From: Dehalococcoidia bacterium
Lineage (GTDB): Bacteria > Chloroflexota > Dehalococcoidia > Lucifugimonadales > CBDCYU01
NCBI GenBank assembly: GCA_965224345.1
Contig: CBDCYU010000003.1
Location: 2,100,297 to 2,164,296 of the forward strand
Reading direction: 5' to 3'
DNA: 64,000 nt
The notes beneath the pieces were generated by a model, which saw only the letters and a list, made by a program, of their open reading frames with translations, was not told where the DNA came from and did not search any database. Below, piece by piece: positions 12,318 through 37,201 of the stretch. The position numbers and the translations under genes were made by a program. Numbering within the stretch: position 1 is the stretch's first letter; every line of letters starts with the position of its first letter.

Positions 12318-13058
12318 ATGGGCGACCAGGACCACGAGAAAGTTGACTGTTCGGTATGCAATGCCAGCGGGATTACCTGGCAGCGCCGCAAGCCGCGTCT
12401 GTGCTCCTTCTGCGAAGGCGCGAGACAGTTGACACCTGACGAGTTGGCCAGCCGACTCAATAGGCTGGCAGGTGAGGTGTCCAGCCTGCCGGGCGCTGTC
12501 CACGACGAGCTTGACCGGTTCCAGAAGGCAGTGGGCGAGCAGGCGATCGACGCGGAAGAGCTGGAGAGGCAGTTCCTACTAGAGCGTGGCATCAAGGCCA
12601 AGCCGGGCATCGAGGAGCAACACCTGCTGCCCTATCAGGGAGGCGAGCTCTCAGAGGAGCAAGAGGAGCTGCAGGCCATCCTGAAGGCCGGTGAAGAGCG
12701 GAGGGCGCGGAGGGCAGCCGCGATCTCTCAGCTTGACGAGCAGGCCCGGCACGACGAGGAGCTGAAGGAGCGCTATGGTCCAGACCTGTACCGTCTCTAC
12801 AGGTCCGGTCGGATAAGCGAAGCCAAGGCCCACCTGTTGGTGGGCCCGGAAGACCTGACCCTGTTTCAACAGTGCGTCGACCAGGGTAATCTTGCCATGG
12901 TCGACGTGGGCTATGATTGCCAAGTTACGGATATCGCTGTTCTGATGGTCACTCAAATTCATTGCCTTCAAATGCGATCGTATATCCGCGGATGGGTTTG
13001 CAATTTCAGTCCACTCGTCATAAAATGGCGCTTCCGGTACGATACCAGTACGCACTGA
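12318..13058 (+). CDS. zinc-ribbon / coiled-coil hypothetical protein with a chimeric 3' end
   Basis: [18 protein letters not shown]...LCSFCEG gives a CxxC...CxxC pattern, followed by an E/R/Q-rich coiled coil. From about 12831 the frame runs through the antisense of a typA fragment ([29 protein letters not shown]...), which is unlikely to be native sequence. Confidence 0.45.
12831..12982 (-). repeat. inverted duplicate of the typA 5' end (about 20 nt of leader plus codons 1-44)
   Basis: Hand alignment to the reverse complement of 37050..37201 gives 145/152 identical. It encodes [44 protein letters not shown] (the genuine gene has T where this has I, and P where this has A). Confidence 0.9.
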
Positions 13059-13067
13059 GGTCTGCCG

Positions 13068-14012
13068 ATGCCGAAGAGAAGGCGTGTTCGCCGATACGAC
13101 CTCTACGCTGACGGTCACGAAACCGTCAAAAGGCCCTCGTCTGTACGCGGGGCGAAGCCCCTGCACGACCCCCCGAGTATTGGCACGGAAAGCCGCATCA
13201 GGTACTTCCGGGAGAACCTCTACCCCTACCGCAACCGCATGAGCTACGACGAGTACTACGACCAGAAGTTCCCTCTACAGGTGGAGATGGTCAAGCTCCA
13301 GAACTGGATCAAAGACGCCGGGGAGCGGATGATCATACTGTTCGAGGGGCGCGACGCGGCTGGCAAAGGCGGCACCATCCGCCGCTTCATGGAGCACTGG
13401 AACCCTCGGAGCGCGCGCGTGGTCGCCTTGGACAAGCCTTCGGAAGTGGAGCAGGGACAGTGGTACTTCCAGCGCTACATCAGCCACTTCCCGTCGTCCG
13501 GCGAGATCGTCCTGTTCGACCGGTCCTGGTACAACCGCGCCGGTGTCGAGCGGGTGATGGGCTTCTCCACCGACAGAGAGTACAGGATGTTCATGCAGCA
13601 GGTGCCGGTCTTGGAGAGGATGGTCGTCGAAAGCGGCATCCACCTCATCAAGCTGTACTTCTCCGTCAGCCGGAAGGAGCAGCTCCGGCGTTTCAAGAAG
13701 CGCGCCAAGGACCCCCTCAAGCAGTGGAAGATCAGCCCCGTCGACCTGCTATCCAAGGACAAGTGGAGCGAGTACACGGAGGCGAAGGAGGCTATGTTCC
13801 TCCTGACCGACATCGCCGGAGCGCCGTGGACGATCATCAAGTCCGACGACAAGATGCGGGCGAGGATCAACGCCATGCGCCACGTTCTCAGCTTGATGGA
13901 CTACGAGGGGAAGGATACCTCGGTCGCTCACGCCCCGGACCCTTCCATCGTCGCCTACACGAGGGAGATATACACCGCGGGCTCCCCCCTGGTAGAGCCT
14001 GCCCTCGTCTAG
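13068..14012 (+). CDS. ppk2: polyphosphate kinase 2
   Basis: The PPK2 core is [18 protein letters not shown] (Walker A-like), followed by [36 protein letters not shown] and a lid region. The N-terminal ~50 residues may be an over-extension. Confidence 0.9.
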
Positions 14013-14287
14013 CCCGGAAGCACGCCCTCGCCGGTGAAGAGACGCTCGCCCTCCTCGAGGGTGATGTCAGGTTCGGGAAGCACCAGGTCCGACTCGACTA
14101 TCTCGTCGAGCGGGACCTCCGTCCCGTTCTCCCTCACCAGGTCCAGCATCTCCTTCAGGAGGCGGTCGAAACCCTCGCGGTCTCCGTCCTCGACGACCTC
14201 CACCAAACGGTTATCGATTTCGTTGAGCCGGTCGACGTAGGCGCCTGGAAGGTTGTACTGTCCCTCGGTGAGAATGCGAACGATCAT
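14009..14287 (-). CDS. PspA-associated protein PspAA
   Basis: MIVRILTEGQYNLPGAYVDRLNEIDNRLVEVVEDGD...[27 protein letters not shown] matches the family that sits immediately downstream of pspA in actinobacterial-type Psp loci. It shares a 4-nt overlap with pspA. Confidence 0.7.
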   Translation of the reverse strand: MIVRILTEGQYNLPGAYVDRLNEIDNRLVEVVEDGDREGFDRLLKEMLDLVRENGTEVPLDEIVESDLVLPEPDITLEEGERLFTGEGVLPG

Positions 14288-15096
14288 CGCCCGCCCTCCG
14301 AAGGTCCCCTGTTGCCCCCGGAAGGCGCCTGTGTCCTGAAGACCGCCAGCTCGTCTTCGACGCTCTGAGACCCGCCCGCCGGAAGCGCTTTTGGGGCCCC
14401 GGAAGGCGCCTGTGTCCTGAGGGCCGCCAACTCGTTTTCGACGTTCTGAGACGCGGCGATGGCCGCCAGCTCCTTGCCCAGGGGGTCGCTGCGTCCCGAG
14501 AAGTCATCCAGCATACCGAGCTCGGCCAGCTCGTCGATGGCGCCGGACTTGGCTCTCAGGGCCTCGGTCTTCTGCTCGGCCCGCTCGACTGCCAGGGAGA
14601 CGTCTCCCATCTCTTCCGAGATGCCGGAGAGGGCTCCGCCAATGCGCACCTGCGCTTGGGCCGCGCTGTACTGGGCCTTGATGACCTCTTTCTTGTTGCG
14701 GAACGCCTCTACCTTCACCTGGAGACGCCGCTCCGCGTTGGTCAGCTTCTCCTGCTCCAGCTCCATGTTGGCGATCTGGTCGTCCAGCCCTTCGAGCTCG
14801 AACACTGCGGTCTGCTTCCGCTGGAGGGCCAACCTCGCCAGGTCCTCCCGGCCGGCCGCCATCGCCTGCCTCGCCTGGTTATCCACCAGGTCGATATTGT
14901 CCTTGACCTTGGCCGCCTGCAGCTGCAGCCGACGCTTGGCAGTCACCATCTCGACCACGCCGCGCTTAACGTCTCGCAGCATCTCCCGCTGCTTCTCGTA
15001 GGCGTAGTCCAGGTTCTCCGCCGGATTCTCCGCATCGTCCACGATACGGTTCATCTTGGCTTTGACGACGGTGGACATCCTCGAAAGTATTCCCAT
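14284..15096 (-). CDS. pspA: PspA/IM30 family protein
   Basis: MGILSRMSTVVKAKMNRIVDDAENPAENLDYAYEKQREMLRDVKRGVVEMVTAKRRLQLQ... is the canonical PspA/Vipp1 coiled-coil N-terminus. The C-terminal tail is duplicated. Confidence 0.9.
   Translation of the reverse strand: MGILSRMSTVVKAKMNRIVDDAENPAENLDYAYEKQREMLRDVKRGVVEMVTAKRRLQLQAAKVKDNIDLVDNQARQAMAAGREDLARLALQRKQTAVFELEGLDDQIANMELEQEKLTNAERRLQVKVEAFRNKKEVIKAQYSAAQAQVRIGGALSGISEEMGDVSLAVERAEQKTEALRAKSGAIDELAELGMLDDFSGRSDPLGKELAAIAASQNVENELAALRTQAPSGAPKALPAGGSQSVEDELAVFRTQAPSGGNRGPSEGGR
14316..14452. repeat. 81-bp-period tandem duplication inside the pspA 3' end
   Basis: ccccggaaggcgcctgtgtcctga...ctcgt.ttcgacg.tctgagac occurs twice, starting at 14316 and 14397. 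It encodes ...E(N/D)ELA(A/V)(L/F)RTQAPSG... twice. Confidence 0.85.
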
Positions 15097-15147
15097 CTTG
15101 CTGCCCCCTCTCAGCTGAACGCCCCCCAGCAGGGAGCGCGCGTACGG

Positions 15148-15345
15148 CTAGAAGCCGTTTGATCTGCCTCGGTCGCCGCTAAACAGGGATATTAGCCCTA
15201 CGACCCCCAGAATCACCCCTAAAATGACCAAGATCCAGCCAATCACGTTCAGCAGCGCCGCCAAGAGGTCCCACTGTATGAGCAAACCGACGACTATCAG
15301 TAGTATCGCGGCAATGATGAGGCCACCGCCTCCTGCTCTCCTCAT
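15148..15345 (-). CDS. small integral membrane protein (two predicted TM helices)
   Basis: The 65-aa sequence is MRRAGGGGLIIAAILLIVVGLLIQWDLLAALLNVIGWILVILGVILGVVGLISLFSG. It lies upstream of and co-directional with pspA. Confidence 0.6.
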   Translation of the reverse strand: MRRAGGGGLIIAAILLIVVGLLIQWDLLAALLNVIGWILVILGVILGVVGLISLFSGDRGRSNGF

Positions 15346-15650
15346 GTCACCTCCTGCTCGATTCGCGGCTCCGCAGAGTACATTATCGCAGATGCGTCAA
15401 GAAAAAGCGCAGGGTAGATAGGTAGATAGAGACTCCAAACTACCTTTCGGCAGCCGCGCCGCGGCCCGGCGTGCCCCCCTTTCGTGGACACAGGGGCGAT
15501 GTTACACTCCCACCGTCACAGCAAATTGAAGCCACGGTGGGGTCGGCGCCCCGCTGCATCGTGAGGAGGCGCTTTGCGCGCACCCCTATCGGCCCAATTG
15601 TGGCTTGCTGCGGCAAGCAGTCACCTACGTGATGCCGTAAGGGGGCCTTC

Positions 15651-18035
15651 ATGAAGCGACTTATCGCCGCGTGCGTCCTCTTTTGCTTGGCCGCCTGCTC
15701 CACTCCCACTACTCCCACGCCCACAACATCGCCTCTTCCGTCACCCTTACCCACGGCGTCCCTCACTCCGACTCCCTCACCCACGGCGTCCCTCACCCAG
15801 ACCCCCTCGCCCACGGCGACCCTTACTCCGACTCCCTCGCCCACGGCGACCCTCACTCCGACTCCCTCGCCCACGGCGACCCTCACTCCGACCCCCTCGC
15901 CCACGGCGACCTTCACGCCGACGCCCTCGCCCACAGCGACCCTCACGCCGACGCCCTCGCCCACAGCGACCCTCACTCCAACCCCCTCGCCCACGGCGAC
16001 CCTCACCCCAACCCCCTTGCCCACGGCGACCCTCATTCCGACTCCGACGTTGACCCCAACCCCCGCGCCTACCTTCACGCCCACTCAGATACCTACGGCA
16101 ACTCTGACCCCGACGCCCCGGCCGACGGCGACGGCGACGCCCCCGCCGCAGCCAGGCAGCTTGCGGTGGCGATTCCGCACTCGAAGCTGGGTGGACGCGG
16201 CCCCGGTAATAGTCGACGGGACCGTCTACATCGGCTCCCAGGACGCGAACCTATACGCCCTCGACGAGAAGACGGGGCAGAGAAGGTGGTCTCACGAGGT
16301 GGGGGGTGGAATAACGGGTGAGGCCGTCGTGGTCGACAGCATCGCCTACGTGTCCTCGCTGGACCACAACCTCTACGCCATCGACACCCTCCGCCGAGAG
16401 GTCAAATGGACGTTTGAGACAGGTGACAAGCTGTGGCGCGGTCCCGTGGTGGCGGACGGGGTTGTCTACGTGGGTTCCAAGGACGCCAGCGTATACGCCG
16501 TGGACGCCGCAACCGGCGACCTCGTCTGGCAGTACGATACGGCCGATAGCATCATCGGCGGAGTGCGGCTCCACGGGGACACGCTGCTGTTCCCCTCATA
16601 CGACTATTCCCTCTACGCCCTGGACGCATCCGACGGTACACTGCTGTGGCGAGCGGCCATGGTAAGCGGTTCCGCGACTCGACCAAGTATCGGGGACGGC
16701 GCAGTGTACGTCGGAGCCTTCGACGGTCGGGTGTATGCCTTCGACGTGGAGACGGGCCGCTCCCTCTGGACCCAATGGCTTGGGGAGACCGCCATCTGGG
16801 CGTCTCCCGTCGTTCACGGAGACCTCGTCTTGGTGGGAGCTACCGATGGGCGTCTGTACGCCCTCGCCGCCGCCGACGGCTCCCTGCGGTGGAGCTTCGC
16901 CACGGAAGGCGAAATCAGGTCGACGCCGGCGGTAAGCGACGGGACGGCCTACTTCGGCTCCTACGACGACGGCGTCTACGCCGTGGATATAGCCACGGGC
17001 GGGTTGGCCTGGCGATTCGCCACTGAGGGCGACATAAGAGCAACGGTAGCGGTCTTGAACGGTACTGTGTACGCCGGGTCGCGGGACAACGCGCTCTACG
17101 CGATAGCGGCGGGCATCCCGCCGGGAACGGAGCTGAAGATGTCGGCAACCCTGGTCGCCTCCTCTACGCCGGACTTCATCCCCCTCAGCCCCGAAGAGGC
17201 GCGCGACCTGGTGGAAGAGTCGAGAAGGTGGAAGGCGCTGGGCGGCACCCGGTCGACCGCCGACGGAGGAGTGGAAAGAATCTCCACCATCGATGAGGTC
17301 TTCCAGCTGTACGAGCTTGCCCACTTCCTGCTCACGGGCGTACCCTCCCGTTGGATTCCCCTAGTGTTTCCTCGAGAGGAGTTCCAGCATCTGACCCGCG
17401 ACCCCGAATTGGCACGAGCGGCGGCCTGGTGCTGCCGACGCACCGAGGACGGAAATCTGGAGCTTATCATCAAGGGAAGCGAGCCTGCCCACTCGGTTGT
17501 CTCCTCCATCGGCCACGAGGCCGGCCATGCCCGACAGAGGTCACGTAACCCAGGTCAGCGCGGGCCGCGCGACTCCAACGTCGGGGCCCTCCACGAAGCC
17601 CAGGCGTTTGCGTTCCAGGCCGCTGTAATCCGCAAGCTGGGGGAGTACACGGGAGTGAACGCCGCCATCATCCCCAGCCAACACAACGTGGTACAACGGA
17701 TCAGCAATTGGATGTCCAGGCTCCAGGGTGACCTGCACGACGTGACGGAACAGCATCAACGAGGACGCGCCCTGCTGTGGAGCGCCGTGCTGAACGACCC
17801 TGCCCTGGCTGACCTGAAGAGTGAGCTGGAGAGGAACGGGCTTCTAACGGCGGACAGCCTGCTTCTCCTGCACGACCACCTGGTCGGGATCGAACGAGAC
17901 GAAGCGGACGACTACGTGGCCGGCCTCCTGGAGGTCTTTGATCCAACGCTGGTCAAGAAGACGGTCTTGAGGCGGAGCGGCGCTGCCGAGGACGGCTTCT
18001 TCGAGCACGTCTCGCGTATCTTCCTGATGCCCTAG
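15651..18035 (+). CDS. lipoprotein with a PT-rich linker, PQQ-like beta-propeller repeats and a C-terminal HExxH domain
   Basis: The lipobox is [16 protein letters not shown]|S. About 10 copies of [10 protein letters not shown] follow. Repeated Y(A/V)(L/I/V)D..TG...W blades (BamB/PQQ-like) come next. The C-terminal region has [12 protein letters not shown] plus a downstream ALHEAQAF, a possible gluzincin arrangement. An AAGGGGG RBS precedes the start. Confidence 0.85.
15751..16046 (+). repeat. 30-bp tandem repeat, about 10 copies, in-frame coding (PT-rich linker)
   Basis: The unit is ccacggcgaccctcactccgactccctcgc, starting at 15751 and recurring every 30 nt to about 16046 with point variants. 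Confidence 0.9.
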
Positions 18036-18106
18036 GGACGAATTGGGGACGAGTAGACCCCCTCTCGTGGCTCTGGTGTACTTCCCGTCTCCCGTTTCCA
18101 GGCCGA

Positions 18107-18135
18107 TTGACACCCGGCCGAGAGCCTGATATAAG
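18107..18135 (+). promoter_or_regulatory. candidate sigma-70-type promoter (TTGACA-17 nt-TATAAG)
   Basis: TTGACA is at 18107-18112 and TATAAG at 18130-18135, about 90 nt upstream of the TTG start at 18225. Confidence 0.35.
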
Positions 18136-18224
18136 CCATGTAGCCTGACTCCGATGCCCTTCCGATAGTACGTTCCCGCGCCGTCGCGCACCTGACGCCG
18201 CGTTCCCAACCGGAGGAGTGAACT

Positions 18225-18881
18225 TTGCTCTTAGTACAATGTGACTTCGACGATACGGTCACCGACGGCAACGTCAGCGAGGCGATCCGCGAGGTGTTCG
18301 CACTCGATGAGTGGCGCTCCATGGAACGCGAGTTCCTGGACGGCAAGCTCAGCGTAGAGGAGAGCAACACCAGGCAGTACCCGCTGGTGCGCGCCACCCG
18401 TAAGGAGATAGAGGACTTCGTCGTGGGCAACGTGGTGATGCGCTTCGGCTTCGAGCAGTTCGTGGAATACTGCTTGGCCGTGGAGATCAGGCTGGTCATC
18501 GTCAGCAGCGGCCTCGACATGTACATCGAGCCGGCCCTGGACTTGCTGGGCTACGACCACATCGAGGTGTACTCGGCCAAGGCAGAGGTCACCCAGAACG
18601 GGGTCGCCGTCAGCTACACCGACCCGGCGGGGAGGCCGCTCACCCGGGGCTTCAAGGAGTCGTACCTGCGGCACTTCAAGGAGCAGGGCCACACGGTGAT
18701 CTACGTCGGTGACGGGCAGTCGGATATCGCGGCCGCGACGGAGGCCGACTTCGCCATCGCCCGAGCCGTCCTGGAGACGCACCTACGCGAGGCGGGACTG
18801 CCCCACCAGAGCTTCGAGAGCTTCGAAGACATCGCCAAGCACGTGGACAAGATACGAGTGCTCGTCCAAGAGGACCAGTAG
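18225..18881 (+). CDS. HAD-IB family phosphatase, MtnX-like
   Basis: A TTG start follows a GGAGGAG RBS. HAD motif I is CDFDDTVT, motif II-like is IVSSG and motif IV is YVGDGQSDIAAA. Overall collinearity with 2-hydroxy-3-keto-5-methylthiopentenyl-1-phosphate phosphatase-type proteins. Confidence 0.75.
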   Translation: MLLVQCDFDDTVTDGNVSEAIREVFALDEWRSMEREFLDGKLSVEESNTRQYPLVRATRKEIEDFVVGNVVMRFGFEQFVEYCLAVEIRLVIVSSGLDMYIEPALDLLGYDHIEVYSAKAEVTQNGVAVSYTDPAGRPLTRGFKESYLRHFKEQGHTVIYVGDGQSDIAAATEADFAIARAVLETHLREAGLPHQSFESFEDIAKHVDKIRVLVQEDQ

Positions 18882-18901
18882 GGGCCGGGCCGGCGGCGGC
18901 G

Positions 18902-19609
18902 TCAGCGGCCGAACAGGCTCAGGAACCGGTCTTCGTAGAACCCGAACAGGCCCCAGCGGTCCAGCTCCCGCTTGAGCAGCTCGGGGTCGCCGCCGGCCCT
19001 CACCTGCCGGAAGAGCTGCTCTATCTGGTCTACCGCGGCCCTGGGCACTCCACCCAAGCCGGGTTGGGGGTCCAACATCCCCCTGGAGCGGAGCTCTTGG
19101 ATGTTGTGCCTGGCGGAGTTGGCGGTGAACTCGTAGATGAACTTGAACAGCGCGACGTCCCAGAGCTCGTCCACGCCCACCATCACCACCGCCAGGTTCT
19201 CGTTGCGCCGGTCCAGGTCGTCGCTGATGTTGTGGGCTATCTCCCGGGGAGCGCCGCTGACTATGTTGGACTTCTCCGCCTGGTTTCTGTACTGGTACAG
19301 TATCCCGGCGCTGTTTGGCCCATAGGTCCGGGCGGTGTACTGGAGATACTCGAAGGCCTCGTCGCTGAAGCCCTGGAGGTTCATCGCGTAGGTGGGCGTG
19401 ACCACGGCGGGCCGCTCGGCGATCACCCGGCCCGTTCGGACGACCCCCTCTTCACCCTCGGAGCCGCCCGGGACCAGGTCGTTGTAGATCGGCTCCGTGA
19501 CGACGTAGTAGGCGATGTTGGTAAGCCCGAAGGTGGTCAGATGCACCTTGGGGAACCGCACCACCCAGCTCTGCTCGATGGCCCTCTTCCACGCGTGTTC
19601 AGGGTCCAT
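18902..19609 (-). CDS. hypothetical protein (235 aa), no family recognised
   Basis: A clean ORF with normal composition. It overlaps the upstream peptidase gene by 11 nt, so the two are co-transcribed. Confidence 0.65.
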   Translation of the reverse strand: MDPEHAWKRAIEQSWVVRFPKVHLTTFGLTNIAYYVVTEPIYNDLVPGGSEGEEGVVRTGRVIAERPAVVTPTYAMNLQGFSDEAFEYLQYTARTYGPNSAGILYQYRNQAEKSNIVSGAPREIAHNISDDLDRRNENLAVVMVGVDELWDVALFKFIYEFTANSARHNIQELRSRGMLDPQPGLGGVPRAAVDQIEQLFRQVRAGGDPELLKRELDRWGLFGFYEDRFLSLFGR

Positions 19610-22519: not shown

Positions 22520-22526
22520 GCGCCGT

Positions 22527-24889: not shown

Positions 24890-25043
24890 ATTAAGCTTCC
24901 CCCCCTCACATGCCCCCCGAATGGGGGGCGCTTCAAGCAGCGCTGGGTACCGGATATACCGAGAGCTGCAGTTTGGAATCGCCTCTCCCTGCGAATCGAT
25001 TCTAGCATTGTCGTCCGTCCGGGGCAAACGCCGGAGCTATCCT

Positions 25044-28020: not shown

Positions 28021-28023
28021 TCA

Positions 28024-29289
28024 GTGGAAAGCGACACTTGGTTATCGATTTTGGCCCTGGCTGTGTCGACCGCCTGCTTCGCCATTACGTCAATCGTTGA
28101 CGCGAGCCTGCGGTCGGTCCGCCGAGAGCGGTTGCAACGTCTGATAGCCGAGGGACGGCCAGGAGCGGCCAAGGTCGAGCGCCTCCATTCCCTGCCAATG
28201 GGGCCGGCAGGCTCCACGTCTCTGACGAGGCTCTTGGCGCTGGTTGCAGCCGTCATATCCTCCGTCGCCGTCCTCATCGTCTTCAAAGGCGTCAGCTGGC
28301 CGGGCATCGCTCTCTCCTCCATCGCCGCCCTGGCTCTCCTCGGCTTGATCCACACCCTCTCATCGGTGGCAGCAGCAACCTTCGGGGAGCGGATCGCCCT
28401 GGGAACGTCCTTCTATCCCCGCACCCTCGCCTGGATACTGAACCCGGTCCTAGCCGTCCACTCCCTCCTGGCCCGGCGCCGAGGGGTCAACGACCCGCTG
28501 GACGCTGCCTCCGAGCTGGTTCCCACCGAGATTGAGCTTCCAGCCGAGTCCGCCGGAGAGCCCCTGGACGAGCGAGAGGTCCGGATGATCCACGCGGTGG
28601 TCCAACAAGACAAGACCGTGGCAAGGGAGATTATGGTCCCCCGCGTGGACATGGTGACGGCAGAGCTGGGCTCGCCAATCAACGAGCTGGCCGAGCAGAT
28701 GGTGGCGGGAGGACACAGCAGAATCCCCGTGTTCAACGGAGACCTCGACCACATAGAGGGCGTCGTTCACGCTCGCGACCTCCTGGAGCACATGGTGCGT
28801 GGAGATCCGAGCAAGCTGCTCCAAAAGGAATTGATGCGCGCCACCCTCTTCATCCCGGAGTCCAAGACCCTGGAAGAGCTGCTCAAAGAGTTTCAAGGGC
28901 TAAGGGTCCACATGGCCATCGTCATCGACGAGTACGGCGGGGTCTCGGGACTCGTAACCATCGAGGACCTGCTGGAGGAGATCGTGGGGGAGATCCAGGA
29001 CGAGTTCGACGTGGGAGAGCCCAACGTCGAGCTCGTCGACGACTCCCACTACGCCATGGACGCCAAGGTCAGCATCGACCAGCTCAACGACCTGTTGAAC
29101 GTATCGGTAGAGGGCGACGGGTTCGACACCCTGGGAGGGTTCGTATACCAGCGCCTGGGGAGGATCCCCAGCGCCGGCGATACCGTGGAGTACGACGGTC
29201 TGGTGGTAAAGGTGATCACCACAATCGGACGGCGCCCGAAGCAGCTGCACGTGTGGAGAAGCACAGCCTCCTCGGAAGAGTCGTCCTGA
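28024..29289 (+). CDS. hemolysin-family protein (CNNM/DUF21 TM domain + CBS pair + CorC_HlyC)
   Basis: Four N-terminal TM helices are followed by a CBS-pair region ([11 protein letters not shown]…HSRIPVF…) and a C-terminal CorC/HlyC domain (…[13 protein letters not shown]). The GTG start is 4 nt after the glmU stop. Confidence 0.9.
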
Positions 29290-29314
29290 TTGCTGCGTGG
29301 ACGTGGACAGTAAT

Positions 29315-29347
29315 GAAAGAGCCCTCGCCAGTGGCGAGGGCTCTTTC
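29315..29347. terminator. 15-bp perfect hairpin between convergent genes (bidirectional terminator candidate)
   Basis: gaaagagccctcgcc-agt-ggcgagggctctttc lies 26 nt after the stop at 29289. Confidence 0.6.
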
Positions 29348-29409
29348 TCATAGGCCGGCTAGGCCCCCATCCTAACCCTCCCCCTTGCGGGGAAGGGGCT
29401 TTGAGATAG

Positions 29410-30351
29410 TTACTTAGCCTCGGACACCCACAATGGGGCGGTCGCCTCAGAGCCCATGGTCCCAACCGCCTTTACGGTGTATATTCCGACGGCCAGCTCG
29501 ATTTCCGCATTCACGGTGAACGCTCCCGAGCTGTTGCTGGGAGTAGCTATGATGATCGTGTCCTGGCCCTGGCTGGCTGCCAGCGCCGTGAGGGTCACCG
29601 TCTCGTCGGCGTGGAATCCGGCTCCCCAGAATGTGGTTGTCCCGCCTGGCTCCACCGCGTTGGCCACGAGGCTCGACCCCGGCATGGGCGGTATCGGCGG
29701 CTCAGGCGGCGGGGGAGCGATCACAATCGGCTGGCTGGCGACGCTGCCGTCGGAGCCCTCCGCCATAAGGGTATGGACACCTTCGGACGCAGAGCCGCCG
29801 ATGGCGGCGACGTCCAGGACGAAAGCCCCCGCGCCGTTGGCGGTTACCTGGCTTCCGGAGCCGCCGCCTATGATGATCTTGGTCGCCGGTGTAACGAGCA
29901 CCAGGGTTATCGCCTCCGAGGGCCGGAATCCGGAGCCGGCAATGGCCAAGGGCTCATCCAGCGCAACCGTGGACTTGCTGGTCATCAGAGCGGCCTGAGG
30001 TGAAACGGCCGGATCCCCGGGAGAACCCTGTGGTCCCGGCGAGCCCACAGCTCCGGGGGCGCCTGGTGTGCCCCTGGGCCCGACGGGGCCCTGTACCCCG
30101 GGAGAACCTTGCTCGCCCGGCTCTCCCCTAAGTCCCTGGAGGCCCTGCTGGCCGCGGAGCCCCTGCGCCCCATCGGCGCCCGGAGCACCATCGACGGCAT
30201 CGATGGCATCGATGCCGTCGATGCCGGGCTCTCCCTGGGGCCCTGTGGGCCCGGCTGAACCCGCAGAGCCTACGTCGCCCGTACAGGCCAGCATCGCAAC
30301 CGAGAGCAGCAGAGCAAGCGCCAGTAACCTTGGAAGTGCACTCTTATTCAC
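29410..30351 (-). CDS. collagen-like triple-helix-repeat lipoprotein with two Ig-like beta-rich repeats
   Basis: The lipobox is LSVAMLAC|TGD. A long G-X-Y run follows (GPTGPQGEPG…GLRGEPGEQGSPGVQGPVGPRGTPGAPG…). The C-terminal part has two related modules (…AIAGSGFRPSEAITLVL… and …FWGAGFHADETVTLTAL…). Confidence 0.8.
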   Translation of the reverse strand: MNKSALPRLLALALLLSVAMLACTGDVGSAGSAGPTGPQGEPGIDGIDAIDAVDGAPGADGAQGLRGQQGLQGLRGEPGEQGSPGVQGPVGPRGTPGAPGAVGSPGPQGSPGDPAVSPQAALMTSKSTVALDEPLAIAGSGFRPSEAITLVLVTPATKIIIGGGSGSQVTANGAGAFVLDVAAIGGSASEGVHTLMAEGSDGSVASQPIVIAPPPPEPPIPPMPGSSLVANAVEPGGTTTFWGAGFHADETVTLTALAASQGQDTIIIATPSNSSGAFTVNAEIELAVGIYTVKAVGTMGSEATAPLWVSEAK

Positions 30352-30573
30352 CTGATCCCTCCGATACGCATTGAGTACTTACGTGTTAACGGCCAAAGAC
30401 ACACGGGCGCCTATCCGACAGCAGGGCGATTGCCGCGGGCGCTAGAGAGACCATTCGGAGCACCGTTACGGGTACGGTGCGGGACCCTGTAAACCGTCTT
30501 CACAAAAGAAACGACCGGGAACATAATTAGAAGCTATCTTCCCTACTTCCAACTGGTCCCGGCCGCAACATTG

Positions 30574-30613
30574 ATAGGTGCTTCAGCTCGACGACACTCG
30601 CTGAAGCACCTAT
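30574..30613. other. 14-bp perfect inverted repeat with a 12-nt loop, in the intergenic region between the collagen-like paralogues
   Basis: ataggtgcttcagc-tcgacgacactc-gctgaagcacctat is followed on the + strand by ttgattttcttc. It lies about 50 nt downstream of the stop of the 30661 gene (minus strand). Confidence 0.4.
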
Positions 30614-30660
30614 TTGATTTTCTTCAGACTGTTGATCGTGCGCGCACCTCGCGCCGCCGG

Positions 30661-31347
30661 CTACTTTTCTTCCACCACCAGCAGCGGTGCGGTTACCCCG
30701 GGGGAACCCGAGGACCGGGTAGCCGCCAGGGTGTACAGACCTGGATCAAGGGTTACCTCAGCTTCGACCATGAAAGTCATAGCACCGTCTGCAGTGGCGG
30801 AGGCCAGGATCACGTCCGCGCCACCCCCCTGCATGACGGTCAAGGTCACTTCCTCGTCCGCCGTGAACCCTGAACCGTAGACCATCGTCATCCCGCCCGT
30901 CTCCACGGCATTCGCTACCAGGCTCGGTGCGGGCATCGCGGGCATAGGCGCAGGAGCAGCCTCACCTGGGTCACCTTTGGGCCCAGCAGGACCCTGCGGA
31001 CCCCGTGTGCCTGAGGCGCCTTGGGCGCCCTGGGCGCCGGCCAATCCGGACGATCCAGAAGGACCTGGAGGGCCCGGAGGACCCGACGGCCCGGCAGAAC
31101 CCGCGTCGCCCTTCGAACCCTGTTGACCCCCTGGTCCCTGCACCCCCTGTGAACCGACGATGCCCTGTGCGCCAGTCCCCCCGGGAGCCCCGTCGATGCC
31201 GTCCACCCCTCGAGCTCCCTGGCTACCCGTGGGGCCCGGAGGCCCTGCGGATCCTACATCGCCCTGACACCCTATGAGAGCGACAACCGAGAGAATCGAG
31301 ATTAGCAGGATTGGGACCAAGCCCCCTGACAGAATACTCTTTCTCAT
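30661..31347 (-). CDS. collagen-like triple-helix-repeat lipoprotein (paralogue of 29410..30351, one Ig-like module)
   Basis: The start is at MRKSILSGG, preceded by GAAGGGGG. The lipobox is VVALIGC|QGD. The same CxGDVGSAGPxGP entry into G-X-Y repeats is present, and the C-terminus is SLVANAVETGGMTMVYGSGFTADEEVTLTV…APLLVVEEK. Confidence 0.8.
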   Translation of the reverse strand: MRKSILSGGLVPILLISILSVVALIGCQGDVGSAGPPGPTGSQGARGVDGIDGAPGGTGAQGIVGSQGVQGPGGQQGSKGDAGSAGPSGPPGPPGPSGSSGLAGAQGAQGASGTRGPQGPAGPKGDPGEAAPAPMPAMPAPSLVANAVETGGMTMVYGSGFTADEEVTLTVMQGGGADVILASATADGAMTFMVEAEVTLDPGLYTLAATRSSGSPGVTAPLLVVEEK

Positions 31348-31646
31348 CTGACCCCCTTCACAATCATGGATATGAACAGACCTATTTCTCCGTAAGTACA
31401 CCTTCAAACGGCGCGTTAATCATATTAACAGCGCCCCTGTATGTCAAGTGTTTCTCCGACATGTCTGCAGGTAAGTTGCCCCTTCCCTCCAGCCAGCCTC
31501 TCTGAGCCTGCCGGACAGCCATTAGAGGAGCCCCCATAGCATAGGGCGGCGAGCGTGGTTTCGCAATGTCGAATCGGGCGACGGAGCTCGGGCGCCGCCA
31601 ACGCCTTGTCGTCCGGGTTTCGTACCTGGTATAGTTTGGTTTCCGT

Positions 31647-31721
31647 GCCCCCGTAGCTCAGTGGATAGAGCACTGGCCTCCGGAGCCAGGAGCGTGGGTT
31701 CGAATCCCGCCGGGGGTACCA
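31647..31721 (+). tRNA. tRNA-Arg (anticodon CCG), CCA encoded
   Basis: GCCCCCGTAGCTCAGTGGATAGAGCACTGGCCTCCGGAGCCAGGAGCGTGGGTTCGAATCCCGCCGGGGGTACCA has a 7-bp acceptor stem, a GTTCGAATC T-loop and the anticodon loop CTCCGGA. Confidence 0.9.
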
Positions 31722-31839
31722 TCTACGGCCTACCTGTACTGTCTCCACAACTAATCGACAGCAGCCGCTGTTGCCCTGGGCGGAGCTCATGGCCAAGGGG
31801 CCAGTGAAACCTAAGTGCCGCAGCCGCAGCCCGCTACCA

Positions 31840-31879
31840 CGTCCCTGTTCCAGTAGGCGTGTAGCCTGGAACAGGGACG
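31840..31879. other. 14-bp perfect inverted repeat with a 12-nt loop
   Basis: cgtccctgttccag-taggcgtgtagc-ctggaacagggacg lies 119 nt downstream of tRNA-Arg. Confidence 0.5.
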
Positions 31880-32092
31880 GAGGAGCAGGCAGGCGCGGAG
31901 CGCTGAGCGGAAAGACACAGCGATAGGCGCGGTGAATCATAGACTCGCTGTACCCCGCAAAAGAGTTGCTCTTGGAAGGCTGCGGAAGATCTTCCGTAGA
32001 TGGGATTGCACCGCAGGGATGGAGTGGGTTGATCCCCATGCGGGGAACATCGTAAGGCCAGGCAACGATGCCAAAGAGGGGGATATCGTGTC

Positions 32093-32881
32093 GTGTCACT
32101 GAAGCTGGTCAACTGGAATGTCGAATGGGTGACGCCCAGGTCGCCGCGCCGCGATGAGGTCCTGCACCGCATCCATGGACATGCCCCCGAGATCGTCTGT
32201 CTCACCGAGACGCACGACGGGCTGCTGTCTCAAGATGGGCACACGATCTGCTCGCAGCCCGACTACGGATACGCCATCAGAGAGGGTCGGCGGAAGGTGC
32301 TGCTGTGGTCGAGGCAGCCGTGGGAGCAGGTCGATGACGTGGGAATCGGTTCGATGCCGCCCGGACGATTTGTGTCCGGCGTCACACAGACCTCGGTGGG
32401 CGAGGTGACGGTTATCGGGGTCTGTATCCCTTGGTTCGGATCACGGACTGAAGCCAAACGAACGCAGGAACGCAAGATGCAGTGGGAAGACCATGAACAG
32501 TATCTGACCGGTCTCACTGAAGTTCTTGGACAGGCGTCAGCTAGGCGCCTGATCGTGATGGGGGACTTCAATCAGCGGATCGGGCCGGACAGCCGTGCGC
32601 GCCGTGAACTTCGATTGGCGCTTCAGAGTGCCTTCCCGCCGGCCATGATGATCGCTACCTCGGCGCTTGGTTTCCGAGGCCGCAGAGCCATCGACCACAT
32701 CGTATTGAGTGAGGACCTGACAGCCGAGTCTCTGGGTGTGATCAGCAACATCTACGACGGGAGAAAACTGTCAGACCACTTCGGAGTCGTTGCCGATCTG
32801 TCTGCCCGACACTCCCCGGTAGCGTCGGTGGTCGGTGTATGCGAGGGCAAGGTGAGTGGGGCAGAGGCGGCCGAGGAGTGA
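32093..32881 (+). CDS. endonuclease/exonuclease/phosphatase (EEP) family protein
   Basis: A GTG start gives LKLVNWNVEW, with EIVCLTE, LIVMGDFNQ and a terminal LSDHFGVVADL (the catalytic DH). These are the typical EEP motifs. Confidence 0.8.
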   Translation: MSLKLVNWNVEWVTPRSPRRDEVLHRIHGHAPEIVCLTETHDGLLSQDGHTICSQPDYGYAIREGRRKVLLWSRQPWEQVDDVGIGSMPPGRFVSGVTQTSVGEVTVIGVCIPWFGSRTEAKRTQERKMQWEDHEQYLTGLTEVLGQASARRLIVMGDFNQRIGPDSRARRELRLALQSAFPPAMMIATSALGFRGRRAIDHIVLSEDLTAESLGVISNIYDGRKLSDHFGVVADLSARHSPVASVVGVCEGKVSGAEAAEE

Positions 32882-32935
32882 GCGCCATTTGTGGCGACTA
32901 CTCCTCTTGCGAGTCCGTCCGGCGGGTTGAGAGGG

Positions 32936-34213
32936 TTACGGGGTGGGAGCGGGTCCCAGCACGCGGTAACCCAGATTGTCCTCAGTCCGCTCGGCGGTGG
33001 GCAGGACCTCGATCACCACGTTGGACAGTCCGATCACGTCACCGCTTTCGTCGAAGCTGTAGTTGTCACCGATGGCTCCACTCCAGGTAAGGCCGTACAG
33101 ACAGTCCCGGAAGCCCGCGGCGTCCTGGTCATCGTTGGTCCGCTTCAGGCACTCGGCGGCGATGTAGACGTCGTCGTAAGCGGAACCCTGGAACCAGGGC
33201 AATGAGGCAACGGCGCCGTAGCGGGCCTTGAAGTTCTTCAGGAACTCCTTGCCGGAGGCGCTGGTCAGGTCAGGGTTGGGTACGATGGCCTTCAGGCCGG
33301 TGGCGGCGTCACCGGCGATGCTGAGGGCATCGGGGGCCGTGGGGACGATTTCGGAAAAGATCAGGCCATCGTATCCCAGTTCCCGGGCCTGCTTGATGAT
33401 GGTGCCGCCGGAGGCCTCGCCCTGGGCGGCCAAGAGCAACGCGTCGGGGTTCTCGCTGAACAGTTTGGTCAACTGGCTGCGAAAGTCGATAACGTCGGAA
33501 GAGTAGCCTTCCGCCGCTACCACGGAGCCGCCCAGCTCCTCGAATCGCGCGACCGCAGCTCGGCGCGTGCCCTCCGCGTAGTCCGTGGACTCGGTGATAG
33601 TGGCGATGCTGCGCACTCCGTCAACCCAGAGGGTGTTGCCCATGTCGATGCCCAGCCGGAGATCGTTGATCGCGGTACGGAAGATATAGTCGCCGGCGGA
33701 GGCGATGTCAGGGCTGGTGGCGGACGCGGAAAAGAGGATGACGCCGTCCTTTTCGGCCAGAGGGGCCGCGCCGAGCATCGAGCCGCTGCAAGTGGTACCC
33801 AGGATGATCTTGACGCCGTCCACATCGGTCAGCTTGTTGTAGGCGGTAATGGCATCCTGCGCGGCGCATTTGGAGTCCTCTACTATGAGCTCCAGCATCC
33901 GGCCGTTGATTCCGCCAGCAGCGTTGATCTCCTCCACGGCCAGCAGTCTGGCTTGGTGCAGGGGGTTGCCGTAGGATTCGGCAACCCCGGTAAGAGCGTC
34001 CATTGCGCCAATCACGAAAGGCTCGTCCGCGGCCATCGCCATGCCCGTTGGAGGGGGCTCGGCCGTGGCCGCCGCGGTGATGGCCTCAGGCGCGGCGACA
34101 GGGGTTGGCGTTGGGTCTGAACCGCAGCCAAGAATCAGAAACACCGGCAGCCCAAGCAAGACAATCGTTTTCCAGGATATGGGTCGCAACTTACGCTCCT
34201 TAGCGGAGGGCAT
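32936..34213 (-). CDS. ABC transporter substrate-binding lipoprotein, branched-chain amino acid (LivJ/K, Peripla_BP_6)-like; no cognate permease nearby
   Basis: The lipobox is FLILGC|GS. The type I periplasmic binding fold pattern is present (…FVIGAMDALTGVAESYGNP…INAAGGINGRMLELIVEDSKC…). Confidence 0.85.
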   Translation of the reverse strand: MPSAKERKLRPISWKTIVLLGLPVFLILGCGSDPTPTPVAAPEAITAAATAEPPPTGMAMAADEPFVIGAMDALTGVAESYGNPLHQARLLAVEEINAAGGINGRMLELIVEDSKCAAQDAITAYNKLTDVDGVKIILGTTCSGSMLGAAPLAEKDGVILFSASATSPDIASAGDYIFRTAINDLRLGIDMGNTLWVDGVRSIATITESTDYAEGTRRAAVARFEELGGSVVAAEGYSSDVIDFRSQLTKLFSENPDALLLAAQGEASGGTIIKQARELGYDGLIFSEIVPTAPDALSIAGDAATGLKAIVPNPDLTSASGKEFLKNFKARYGAVASLPWFQGSAYDDVYIAAECLKRTNDDQDAAGFRDCLYGLTWSGAIGDNYSFDESGDVIGLSNVVIEVLPTAERTEDNLGYRVLGPAPTP

Positions 34214-34346
34214 TTGGCTCGTGGCTTCCCACAGGAAGCGTACTCGGGTTCAGTAGAGCAGCCAAACGAGATGGCTGCATCGTATATGGTATTCCGATGT
34301 CGGTCAATCTCTGGTAACTCCAACAGTTGACGCGAGACGCTGGTGA

Positions 34347-34720
34347 GTGCAGGATTGCCTTCCAAGTGCCCAATCGTGGTATTCTGCCTTTGGCTTGCCA
34401 CTCTATCCGGGCTGGGAGACGATCCTGTCAGCAGCTTCTCGAAACCCCCGTTACGAGGCGCACGAGAACCCATCCCTGCCGGCTTCTCTGGGTTTCGCCG
34501 CGCAGTTCAGCGTGGTCGCATCCGTCACCCTGCTGGCAACGCCGGTTGTCGTAGCCAAGGCGTCGGGGCGGGACGACTCCTACCTGGTGTGGATGGTCTT
34601 CGCCTCTCTGCTGGTCGCTGGCGTGTCCACGCTGGTGCAGGTGCGGCGGGTGGGGCCGGTGGGGGCCGGCGCCCTACTCCCCATGTTCACGGCGGCCTTC
34701 TCGATTCCCTTTTGCAGTCA
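34347..34720 (+). pseudogene. N-terminal remnant of a nucleobase:cation symporter-2 (xanthine/uracil permease)-like gene
   Basis: NPSLPASLGFAAQFSVVASVTLLATPVVVAKASGRDDSYLVWMVFASLLVAGVSTLVQVRRVGPVGAGALLPMFTAAFSIPF matches the first TM helices of NCS2 permeases. Similarity stops where the convergent amidase gene ends (34734). The rest of the track ORF is antisense read-through. Confidence 0.45.
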
Positions 34721-34733
34721 TGCGCGTTCCCCA

Positions 34734-36158
34734 TCACGACACCGGCGGCCTGTGTCCGATCCACGGGCGCGCTCGCTCGAACGCCGCGGATGCGGCAAGC
34801 ACACTCTCTTCGTCATACCTGCGGCCAATAATCTGAAGGCCGATGGGCAGACCGTCCGGTGAGAATCCTGCGGGTACGGAGGCGGCAGGGTGGCCGATGG
34901 CGTTGCCGTGCATCGTGAACGCCCCGTTCCAGTACTGCACGGGATACGACGAGCTTCCCGTGATGCTGCCCGGGAAGGTCTCATTCGGAAAGGCGGGGAA
35001 TGACGACACGGGCGACATGATGAGATCGTACGTCTCGAACGCGTCGTCGAACGTTGCCTTCAGCTCCGCTATACGTCCCTCGGCGCGCATGTAGTCGCCG
35101 GTAGTGACCCGCGACCCCATCTCGATGAAGAAGCGCGCGAACTCCGTCATCCGGTCGCCGTACTCGTCGAGGTACTGCCCCAAGCTGTCGTACGCGCCCG
35201 CCGACTGGATAGGGCCGAACGAGTCGTACGGCTCAGGGAGCACCATGTTCACCTCCTCGACCACGCAGCCCAACTCCTCGAAGACCATCGCGGCCTTGTA
35301 GGTAACGTCCACGACCTCGGGGAGGACCGGGGCGAACCCGAAATCGGCGCTCCATCCGATCCGAAGTCCGTCGATGTCCCGCTCCGTCGCCGCCATGAAG
35401 TCGGGCGGCGTTTGCCGGATGGACGCTTGGTCTCGACGATCGAAGCCCGCCATGACCTGAAGAAGCAGCGCGGCGTCGCGCACCGTCCGCGCCAAGGGGC
35501 CTGGCTGCGAGAAGATGTTCGGCATCGGAGGCCCGTCGAGCCCGCTGTAGCCAGATACGCGGCCCTGCGTCGGTTTAATGGTGTAAATGCCGCAGAAGTT
35601 GGCAGGTATCCGCAGCGATCCGCCGCCGTCGCTTCCGGTTGCCACGGGGCACAGGTACGCCGCCACGGCCGCCGCCGCGCCACCACTCGATCCTCCGGGC
35701 GTCCGGTCGGTATTCCACGGGTTGTGTCCCAGAATCCCCAGGGAGTTTTCACACGTGCCCACCATGCCGAACTCCGGCACGTTGGTCTTCCCCAGCATTA
35801 CCGCCCCGGCGTTCAAGACCCGCTCGACGAAGGCAGCGTTCCGCTCCGGCACCCGGTTCTCGTACACGACGGACCCCATGGTCGTCCGAACACCCGCGGT
35901 CATCTGGGTGTCCTTGACGGGTACGGGGAGGCCGTGCAGCGCACCCAGCTTGTCGCCCCGCATCACGGCGTCCTCCGCCGCGCGCGCCCGCTCCATCGCC
36001 AAGTCGCGCGTCAGCAGGATAAAGGAATTGAGCTGCGGATCGAGTCGATCGATGCGCTCGAAGAACATCTCCGCCAGCTCCACCGGCGAGACCTGCTTCG
36101 TCGCAATCAGCTCCAGCAACTCAGTCGCCGGTTCGTATGCCAGCCGCTCGTCTGCCAT
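34734..36158 (-). CDS. amidase-signature family amidase (GatA-like)
   Basis: GGSSGGAAAAVAA is present, with conserved K and S-cis-S context (…PVPVKDT…GSDGGGSLRIPA…). The start is at MADERLAY after a GGAGG RBS. The track ORF starts 36 nt further upstream. Confidence 0.9.
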   Translation of the reverse strand: MADERLAYEPATELLELIATKQVSPVELAEMFFERIDRLDPQLNSFILLTRDLAMERARAAEDAVMRGDKLGALHGLPVPVKDTQMTAGVRTTMGSVVYENRVPERNAAFVERVLNAGAVMLGKTNVPEFGMVGTCENSLGILGHNPWNTDRTPGGSSGGAAAAVAAYLCPVATGSDGGGSLRIPANFCGIYTIKPTQGRVSGYSGLDGPPMPNIFSQPGPLARTVRDAALLLQVMAGFDRRDQASIRQTPPDFMAATERDIDGLRIGWSADFGFAPVLPEVVDVTYKAAMVFEELGCVVEEVNMVLPEPYDSFGPIQSAGAYDSLGQYLDEYGDRMTEFARFFIEMGSRVTTGDYMRAEGRIAELKATFDDAFETYDLIMSPVSSFPAFPNETFPGSITGSSSYPVQYWNGAFTMHGNAIGHPAASVPAGFSPDGLPIGLQIIGRRYDEESVLAASAAFERARPWIGHRPPVS

Positions 36159-36218
36159 AACTCTGCCTCCACCCCATCTCTCTGCCCTTGACACACACGC
36201 TAGTCCAACAGCCTAATC

Positions 36219-36821
36219 CTAACCTTCCTCGGGCGGGAACGGGTCCTGCTCACTAACCAACGCCTGCGACTCCCGGATCGACAAACCCCTTTTCCTCTTG
36301 TCTCCCCAGAGGCCTTTGATGTATGTGAGCACCCCGACTATCTCTTCGTGGCTTAGTCGGTCCCCGAATGCCGGCATGGCACTCTTGAAGTCCGAATAGC
36401 GAGGGTCCTCCAGCATCTTTCCACCCTGGCTCACAATTCGGTACAAGAGGCCGTCCGCATGGTGCCACGTATGCCCATCGCCATTGAGGGGAGGCGGCGG
36501 CAGTGTGCCATCGGCCTTCCCAATATGCCAGTCCGGTTGACCCTCGCCAGCAACTCCGTGACAGCCAGCACAATTTGAGGCGAATATCTCTCGACCCGTT
36601 GGAGGCTCCTGAACAGCGGGGACGCTGCCCGGTGTCGGGATATCTTCGCCAGGAGAAGACGAGCAAGCAGTCAAGAAGACCCAGGCGAGCATCAATATGG
36701 CGAAGGCGGCAGCGCAACCGGCGGCTCTCACAGCGATGGAGCGGACGCAGCGAACTGTTAGCAAGGCTCCTCCTGGTGCATCGGTGTCTGACTCGCCGCC
36801 GAAGTGAATTCCGCTCAGCAC
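36219..36821 (-). CDS. membrane-anchored/lipoprotein c-type cytochrome
   Basis: There is a single CAGCH heme-binding site and a distal SAMPAF Met ligand. An N-terminal hydrophobic segment ends in LTAC|SS. Confidence 0.8.
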   Translation of the reverse strand: MLSGIHFGGESDTDAPGGALLTVRCVRSIAVRAAGCAAAFAILMLAWVFLTACSSSPGEDIPTPGSVPAVQEPPTGREIFASNCAGCHGVAGEGQPDWHIGKADGTLPPPPLNGDGHTWHHADGLLYRIVSQGGKMLEDPRYSDFKSAMPAFGDRLSHEEIVGVLTYIKGLWGDKRKRGLSIRESQALVSEQDPFPPEEG

Positions 36822-37049
36822 GTAGTTGAAGTAGCGTCACCTTCAGAAATGCCGTCGGCGCGCTGCATCTCCCGAACGTAACAGATGATCTTCTCCACAG
36901 AATACGTCAGCGAATATCGTTATGCCAGTGGAAGCTGGCATCCAGGCATCGACGACCTTGAAAGCGTCAGACTCTGAGACAGGCTCTACTGCGAACTTTC
37001 CAGTGGGTGGCCACGCGGTAGCAGGGGGTGACCTCTTAGTAGAGTGTTC

Positions 37050-37201
37050 TATGATAGCATTTGAGGGCAATGAATTTGAGTGACCATCAGAACAGCGATA
37101 TCCGTAACTTGGCCATCATAGCCCACGTCGACCATGGCAAGACTACCCTGGTCGACGCGCTGTTGAAACAGGGTCAGGTCTTCCGGCCCCACCAACAGGT
37201 G
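37050..37201 (+). repeat. parental copy of the duplicated typA 5' segment
   Basis: It is the partner of 12831..12982 (inverted, 145/152 identical by hand alignment). It covers the TATGAT -10-like box, the GAGGG RBS, the ATG and 44 codons. Confidence 0.9.

Follow-up and report, generated by a model that had tools for sequence, protein, structure and literature searches.

The typA 5' end is present twice

The 64-kb stretch of DNA analysed here, referred to as the window, comes from an uncultured bacterium of the Dehalococcoidia (Chloroflexota). A typA gene lies at 37070–38914 on the plus strand, and its product has the Pfam domains GTP_EFTU, EFG_C and BipA_C. A repeat search of the whole window showed that the 5' end of this gene (37050–37203, plus strand) recurs in inverse orientation as a fragment, typA', at 12829–12982 on the minus strand. 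The two arms are 24,067 nt apart and agree at 147 of 154 nt (~95%), a match far beyond chance within 64 kb, and they form the sole long inverted repeat of the window. Base-by-base comparison placed the seven mismatches at left-arm positions 12845, 12873, 12889, 12918, 12967, 12976 and 12980, dividing the arms into perfect runs of 16, 27, 15, 28, 48, 8, 3 and 2 nt. No similarity was found in the 14 nt beyond either end. The repeated stretch runs from typA position -20 to +134 and takes in a TATGAT hexamer (37050–37055, at -20), a GAGGG ribosome-binding site, the ATG and 44 2/3 codons, that is, into codon 45, including the P-loop AHVDHGKT. An earlier, sequence-only reading of the window had placed the repeat at 12831–12982 and 37050–37201, with 145 of 152 positions identical, and had described its content as a -10-like box, the ribosome-binding site, the ATG and the first 44 codons with the G1 P-loop, with sharp ends. 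The repeat search and the direct comparison agree with those coordinates to within 2 nt, the annotation of typA bears out the content, and the ends are indeed abrupt.

The left arm, translated on the minus strand, gives the TypA N-terminus followed by unrelated sequence. Because the threonine at the Walker-A Ser/Thr position of its P-loop is replaced (T25I), the copy is dead, and with only 44 2/3 codons, T25I in Walker A and a frame that enters unrelated sequence it is not a functional typA paralogue. The fragment has bases specific to this species' typA, and its source was therefore the species' own gene. The functional TypA of the window has proline at residue 40 (A40P; window position 37187), where 14 other conspecific variants, all related genomes and the fragment itself have alanine. 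Since A40P is private and lies inside the repeated stretch, there has been no gene conversion from typA'.

To place the two copies, 80 typA loci were fetched from related genomes and checked within 10 kb on either side of typA. The host TypA is at most 94% identical to that of any of these loci. The order typA-DEAD helicase is kept in the 80 loci and the region upstream of typA is not; no second typA piece was present within 10 kb of typA in any of the 80 genomes, nor were ppk2 or the cytochrome c gene found near typA. The 50–80 nt immediately upstream of the real typA (including 37000–37049) are orthologous to those of several relatives, but the sequence beyond the left arm is not. The right arm, adjoining the cytochrome c gene, is therefore the resident gene in its ancestral setting. 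As the 80 genomes were too distant to decide on the rest, conspecific long contigs from other samples were used, which were located through the protein-cluster members of ppk2 and TypA.

typA' ends a strain-specific island upstream of ppk2

Nine long conspecific contigs, 96–98% identical to the window, are without the typA fragment. In six conspecific long-read contigs aligned base by base, homology to the window ends at 8166–8168 and restarts exactly at 12983, and none of the six has typA'; in three further conspecific contigs with the same gene order no typA fragment was present among the called genes. Window positions 8169–12982 are thus a strain-specific insertion of 4,814 bp between an ABC-transporter ATPase gene and the promoter of ppk2, and typA' is the last 154 nt of this island. 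A 9-bp direct repeat with the consensus TAYCCGCGG flanks the insertion, the left copy at 8160–8168 (TACCCGCGG) and the right copy at 12983–12991 (TATCCGCGG). The empty site in contig L087 reads GGGCCCTATCCGCGGAGGGGTTTGCAA and contains a single copy of TATCCGCGG. An empty site in close relatives, together with a flanking target-site duplication, is what a transposon-type insertion leaves. In view of these boundaries and of the traffic at the site described below, typA' is very probably a non-functional scrap of the cell's own typA, sitting at the end of a transposon-like island in a recurrent insertion hotspot.

The junctions on the two sides of the scrap differ. On the right, the scrap abuts the target-site duplication directly, with no microhomology. 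On the left it cuts orfJ, a gene for a zinc-ribbon/repeat protein (12297–12828, plus strand). Homologues of its product (P0122–P0133) run on for ~15–20 residues (...SGRxSxSEADGLASRY...) past the point at which the window switches to antisense typA, and orfJ is therefore truncated at its 3' end. The loss of ~15–20 C-terminal codons on one side and the abutment to a target copy on the other fit the illegitimate junction that the sequence-only reading had offered as one of two explanations. The annotated P0121 (246 aa; 12297–13058) is a chimeric read-through open reading frame made up of the truncated orfJ, the antisense scrap and the ppk2 spacer, and is likely an annotation artefact.

The left end of the island (GTAGTGTCTCACTTTGAC..., 8169–8188, plus strand) resembles a terminal inverted repeat. 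Of all positions on either strand of the window, it matches the terminal repeats of an element in another conspecific contig (L096, below) best, and its score was equalled by only 5 of 50,000 random 20-mers. No counterpart was found at the right end or elsewhere in the window, so the island does not have terminal inverted repeats at both ends; the scrap sits where the right one would be.

Within the island, two IS5-family insertion sequences (IS) are nested. IS#1 (8243–10269, minus strand) has 22-nt inverted repeats at 8243–8264 and 10248–10269 (91%) and is interrupted by IS#2 (about 8622–9828, plus strand), with 34-nt inverted repeats at 8622–8655 and 9795–9828. Their proteins match Pfam DUF4096, DDE_Tnp_1_2, DUF772 and DDE_Tnp_1 and the IS5 transposases of NCBIfam; they are the sole transposases of the island, and both elements have repeats of their own. 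Further genes, all on the plus strand, are one for a Cas4-like PD-(D/E)XK nuclease (10289–11080; Pfam PDDEXK_1 and Cas_Cas4, with the PADLOC and NCBIfam Cas4 matches below cut-off), one for a SocA/Panacea antitoxin (11187–11792; Pfam SocA_Panacea, 8e-19; NCBIfam SocA_antitoxin) and an overlapping reading frame of 90 aa (11776–12048), which from its position may encode a toxin partner. An integrase gene was found neither in the island, by Pfam and NCBIfam, nor among the Pfam labels given to the block of 24 kb between the arms in sister strains; there is no structured RNA or tRNA at the junctions, the only two tRNAs of the window lying elsewhere. The G+C content of the island is 0.56–0.61, against 0.63–0.70 for the flank on the ABC-transporter side, where the transporter operon ends at 8202. 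On the other side, a promoter scan found the native ppk2 promoter (TTGCAA-17-TAAAAT, 12998–13026) ahead of ppk2 (13068–14012; Pfam PPK2), the two together occupying 12998–14012 on the plus strand. The region upstream of ppk2 is conserved in contigs L081 and L082 and in all sister strains; PspAA and then PspA follow downstream.

The site upstream of ppk2 is an insertion hotspot

The target, a 9–10-bp site with the sequence (C)TATCCGCGG, lies immediately ahead of the ppk2 -35 box and is a recurrent insertion site in this species (contigs L085–L090 and L096–L098). Across 10 contigs there are four different cargos together with empty and footprint alleles, and all alternative alleles are flanked by the same direct repeat. 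Among the cargos are a 2.48-kb cadherin-like gene, present in four contigs, and a 1.14-kb piece, a remnant, in one. In L096 a 3.73-kb element (6189–9914) carries genes for a MADS-like methyltransferase and S subunit, whose matches to MAD2 and MAD5 fall below cut-off. This element has perfect 18-nt terminal inverted repeats (GTGCATCAGTTTGAGCGC) and has 164 nt in common with the 1.14-kb piece. Two contigs, L097 and L098, have no insert and a tandemly duplicated target, the left copy of which has the TAC variant of the window; this arrangement looks like an excision footprint. An end similar to that of the island also occurs in an unrelated contig with a different flank (L099, 8529–8548), 255 nt upstream of a pair of PD-(D/E)XK and orfJ genes. 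Because its left end matches both the L096 repeat and the L099 end, we take the island to be a member of a transposon-like family, with a proper left end and no right end.

The L096 element, the window island and the L099 end may represent an undescribed family of non-autonomous elements with terminal repeats GTAGTG(N2)TCA(N)TTTGA. Two of these three members have a Cas4-like PD-(D/E)XK gene by the left end together with a zinc-ribbon orfJ; L096 has neither. As in defence-island hotspots, alternative cargos lie between core genes and include anti-phage-type functions (MADS-like, SocA antitoxin, Cas4-like nuclease). The target motif was absent from other strain-variable indels, namely those at the PQQ gene and at 25037. 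Ligation at CCGCGG restriction sites does not account for the repeat, the duplicated stretch being 9–10 nt rather than 6 nt and the window containing 51 CCGCGG sites. For this uncultured Dehalococcoidia species, the hotspot and the GTAGTG-ended family are a more interesting by-product of the analysis than the scrap: the scrap serves as a pointer to its neighbour, a single 9-bp site upstream of ppk2 that has repeatedly taken up different cargos, among them ones that share terminal repeats and carry anti-phage-type genes.

Longer scraps in sister strains

Two short-read contigs from two other samples, L083 and L084, have the same junction typA'|TATCCGCGG|ppk2 as the window. In L084 the scrap is 272 nt long, reaches codon 84 and has an intact P-loop. 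It is followed by an unrelated piece of 313 nt, called X, and then by orfJ codons 1–88 only. L083 begins at typA codon 46 and is of the longer form, since its match to the real typA runs 5 nt beyond the end of the window arm. X (L084 455–766 = L095 1612–1923; L095 is a further contig, described below) contains the start of a small reading frame resembling that of a secreted protein (MFATKKRKIIAAILLVLFAA...); no match to X was found in the window or in any fetched locus. Given the different inner junction in L084, the window and L084 forms are not derivable from each other, and independent deletions from a larger ancestor can account for both. As reconstructed from the two alleles, that ancestor would have read orfJ (at least 178 codons), X and typA' (at least 84 codons). 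The scrap is thus eroding, for the sister strains keep a longer one, with 84 codons and X. A scan of metagenomes for the typA'|ppk2 junction and for orfJ relatives gave no matches, and a viral collection gave none.

In a comparison of sites, the two scraps had one or two changes in common; four changes were found in the window scrap alone, two or three in the L084 scrap alone and one, A40P, only in the real typA of the window. These shared and private changes indicate that the capture took place shortly before the strains split and that it is young on the scale of the species. The seven substitutions had earlier been read as the sign of an event that was not very recent. This is right in so far as the capture came before the window strain and the L083 and L084 strains diverged; the absence of the scrap from most conspecifics and from the 80 relatives limits it to an event that is young for the species. 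The erosion from 84 to 44 codons between strains about 2% diverged makes the scrap a dated marker.

How the scrap arrived

Whatever the route, the element would have lost its natural right end and gained typA DNA in its place, and three routes may be considered. In the first, the element would have suffered a break at its right end, as from a failed excision cut where end and target meet. Resection into the island would have followed, and then repair in which unrelated pieces were joined or copied, typA from 24 kb away as well as X. In the second, the element would earlier have resided in or beside a copy of typA and would have moved on through a cut at typA position -20 that replaced its own end, in the manner of ISEcp1-type units or of aberrant excision of the λ gal/bio type. 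The third is an illegitimate event of a different kind. The first and the second route both fit the anatomy, in which the boundary is exact at the target copy and ragged inside an island gene and unrelated filler pieces occur. Because the support sought for the second was not found, we lean, without proof, to break repair, at rather less than an even chance; earlier residence by typA is somewhat less probable, and a different illegitimate event about as probable as earlier residence.

Several points tell against the picture of a scrap acquired in transposon traffic. The mechanism of capture is a reconstruction. No transposase or recombinase encoded by the GTAGTG-ended family was identified, and the repeated use of one 9-bp site by different cargos could mean site-specific recombination and not transposition. 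The typA -20 region resembles the terminal repeat no better than chance, with 32–49% of random 20-mers scoring as well. Sequence resembling the terminal repeat is absent near typA, in the window as in the 80 related loci, so that earlier residence there is undocumented. Finally, the window is the only long contig that has the island with the scrap, the other carriers being short-read contigs. In keeping with these results, the typA leader was rejected as a surrogate transposon end, and the typA upstream region as a second hotspot of the same element.

We nevertheless regard typA' as a real and ordinary pseudogene relic without a function of its own, and it looks like an ordinary by-product of the movement of mobile elements. 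The scrap itself matters little: it is a decaying pseudogene piece at a mobile-element junction, of a kind common in variable regions, and it is not the mark of an inversion.

Recombination between the arms and other explanations

On physical grounds, homologous inversion between the arms is plausible: their longest stretch without a mismatch measures 48 nt in the window, and in the sister allele with the 272-nt scrap it measures about 84 nt. One contig bears on whether such a flip takes place. L095, a short-read contig of 2,581 nt at 2.9x coverage from sample ERZ6104093, reads from the island through X and typA codons 84 to 1 into the genuine typA upstream region and the cytochrome c gene, as far as window position 36660; a flip would give just such a junction. 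L095 and L084 agree at every base along the island, X and the first 84 nt of the scrap, and all six differences between the two lie within the next 187 nt of the 1,027 nt compared (about 4e-5 under uniform divergence). Because the differences cluster in this way, L095 is a crossover or a chimera and not a donor, and an ancestral donor state with the island inside typA was rejected on the same ground.

Active flipping of the 20–24-kb block by recombination between typA' and typA, which would put the body of typA next to the ppk2 spacer, is possible but doubtful. The L095 junction is the expected recombinant, its pattern of differences fits a crossover inside the repeat, and no recombinase would be needed. 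An assembler jump at the 84-nt identical block explains the 2.9x contig equally well, however, and the reciprocal junction was not found. None of the 15 conspecific TypA variants has the scrap-specific residues I25 or K78, and the arrangement in both L084 and the window is the unflipped one. A flip in the window strain would separate typA from its own upstream region and could bring T25I into the gene; it would therefore probably be selected against. No site-specific invertase or recombinase family was present among the Pfam hits of the island or flank proteins, and the precomputed Pfam labels of this block in sister strains, where its versions were examined, include no recombinase. The block is not inverted relative to close relatives, and it was hinted to occur in the other orientation by the ambiguous contig L095 only. 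As a consequence of the scrap, then, 154 nt of inverted homology (272 nt in the sisters) could occasionally flip 20–24 kb. If the L095 flip were real, it would show that a captured piece of a gene can give rise to a new substrate for inversion in nature.

Some integrative elements target the 5' end of a gene and carry a replacement for it, as SXT/R391 does at prfC, and typA' might be the attachment-site relic of such an element. The scrap holds what it would supply, namely the hexamer, the ribosome-binding site, the start codon and the N-terminus, and it directly abuts the short repeat that flanks the island. Against this, elements of that type leave direct repeats at the gene they target, whereas the two copies here are inverted and have 24 kb with core genes between them. 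The absence of an integrase from the island and from the labels of the sister-strain block speaks against it as well, as does the use of the same site by other cargos without typA sequence and the variation in scrap length between strains. None of the 80 typA loci has an element integrated at typA with direct repeats of the typA 5' end. We consider this origin very unlikely. The same low probability attaches to a functional role in which read-through from orfJ would yield RNA antisense to the start of the typA mRNA, from the ribosome-binding site through codon 44, so that the island tunes the host translation GTPase in trans. On the plus strand orfJ does lead directly, without an intervening terminator-like site, into the inverted start of typA, and the open frame continues to 13058. 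In the sister allele, however, orfJ is cut at codon 88 with the unrelated 313-nt piece interposed, and the scrap is eroding and gathering substitutions in both lineages. Were it true, part of a host gene for a translation GTPase would have been captured by a mobile defence island and be used to damp that gene.

The sequence-only reading had proposed, besides an illegitimate junction, a duplicative inversion, and had expected a comparison of gene order with relatives to reveal which side of the 24-kb block is ancestral. No break was found relative to conspecific contigs. All nine long conspecific contigs have the ABC gene (minus strand) followed by ppk2 (plus strand), in the order and orientation of the window, and in the sister strains the order cytochrome c-amidase-SBP | typA-DEAD-comEA-comEC is the same (SBP, periplasmic binding protein). 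In the fragment-free sister contig ctg245827 (1.8 Mb), ppk2 lies at 755,265 and typA at 775,343, both on the plus strand and ~20 kb apart with the same genes between them; the SBP, amidase and cytochrome c genes lie upstream of typA as they do in the window. When its two loci are stitched together, the contig is collinear with window positions 1–46000, every block being in plus orientation and gaps occurring only at strain-specific indels. The collinearity of a sister chromosome without the fragment places the 24-kb block in its ancestral orientation. An inversion of the block from ppk2 to cytochrome c, with the typA 5' end duplicated at the far breakpoint, would produce inverted, sharply bounded copies, and the gene order upstream of typA is indeed not conserved in more distant relatives. 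The arrangement ABC(-)|ppk2(+)...SBP(-) amidase(-) cytc(-)|typA(+) is, however, shared with fragment-free conspecifics. The scrap has non-typA DNA on both sides and lies inside an insertion of 4.8 kb with its own target duplication, and the real typA still has its native upstream region, intact and with orthologous counterparts in relatives. Duplicative inversion is thus highly improbable, and an ancestral adjacency of ppk2 and typA was rejected on similar grounds, the typA upstream region being orthologous to that of relatives and the ppk2 promoter native. The 24 kb between the arms are ordinary core genome in ancestral orientation, and the impression of a bracketed block comes only from the distance of 24 kb between typA and the hotspot. 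As a caution, the presence of an inverted duplicate does not mean that it brackets something.

Finally, repeats can mislead assemblers, and L095 may be an example, but a mis-join at the 12.8-kb copy is almost certainly not the explanation, because two other samples yielded the same typA'|ppk2 junction independently, in L083 and L084, and a mis-join of identical reads would not give seven differences from the real gene; the junction also matches to the base the homology boundary of the six long-read contigs and the target duplication.

Other features of the window and of related loci

The gene for a PQQ/beta-propeller lipoprotein (15418–18091) contains a run of 30-nt tandem repeats at 15648–16144, encoding TPTPSPTA units, and is a strain-variable indel: L087 and L089 have the gene, L085, L086 and L088 do not, and in L086 a DDE_Tnp_1_4 insertion sequence lies at this spot. 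At the 3' end of the PspA gene there is a tandem duplication of 81 nt (14290–14451; 80% identical). A 63-nt direct repeat (48824–48886 and 49247–49309, 87%) lies on either side of tRNA-Leu(taa) at 48917–49007 and could represent paralogous gene ends or a pair of attachment sites. In the related genome L007, a tRNA-Glu/tRNA-Gln pair is found on both sides of typA (5043–5221 and 13888–14066) in the same orientation and 8.8 kb apart; a tandem duplication or an integrated element could account for it.

Comparison with known systems

In ISEcp1/IS1380-type units one end is a genuine element end and the other is host DNA, and a single target-site duplication surrounds the whole unit. The island likewise has one genuine end, one end of host DNA and one target-site duplication. 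It differs in that no IS stands at its genuine end, the two IS5 elements being internal with repeats of their own, in that no transposase can be assigned to its family, and in that its duplication is 9 bp and not 5 bp; moreover, its host-DNA end has no significant likeness to the terminal repeat. The comparison extends to other one-ended or 'end-skipping' transpositions, the former being mentioned in PMC3575428. In the aberrant excision of λ gal/bio type, as here, host DNA lies beside the attachment or target core and is joined illegitimately to element DNA on its other side. The island has no integrase, however, and nothing indicates that the element was ever beside typA; its target copies look like the duplication left by a staggered cut, and tandem 'footprints' occur in empty alleles.

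Capture of filler or templated DNA has been shown at repaired double-strand breaks in yeast (PMC1976456) and at transposon excision sites (PMC1978519). The island resembles these cases in having short unrelated pieces, the typA scrap and X, at a junction that is exact on the side of the element/target boundary and ragged on the side of the gene. Filler capture is documented mainly in eukaryotes, and the typA/target junction of the island has no microhomology.

SXT/R391 integrates into the 5' end of prfC, a translational GTPase gene. The likeness is that in both cases a mobile element is accompanied by a second copy of the 5' end of a gene for a translation GTPase. In SXT an integrase produces direct duplicates at the target gene, whereas here they are inverted and 24 kb apart and no integrase was found. 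Chromosomal inversions occur between inverted repeats such as rrn operons and IS copies, and the two arms resemble these in being inverted homologous segments flanking a chromosomal block. They differ in that they are only 154–272 nt long, that a flip is suggested by L095 alone and that there is no invertase.

Pan-genome studies of E. coli and Pseudomonas have described defence-island and integration hotspots between core genes. The ppk2 spacer resembles them in that one core-gene spacer holds alternative cargos according to strain, with anti-phage-type genes (MADS-like, toxin-antitoxin and Cas4-like). It differs from them in that each cargo has the same 9–10-bp direct repeat and at least two share terminal repeats. 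The constancy of the repeat and the shared terminal repeats point to one targeting mechanism rather than to exchange by flank homology alone.

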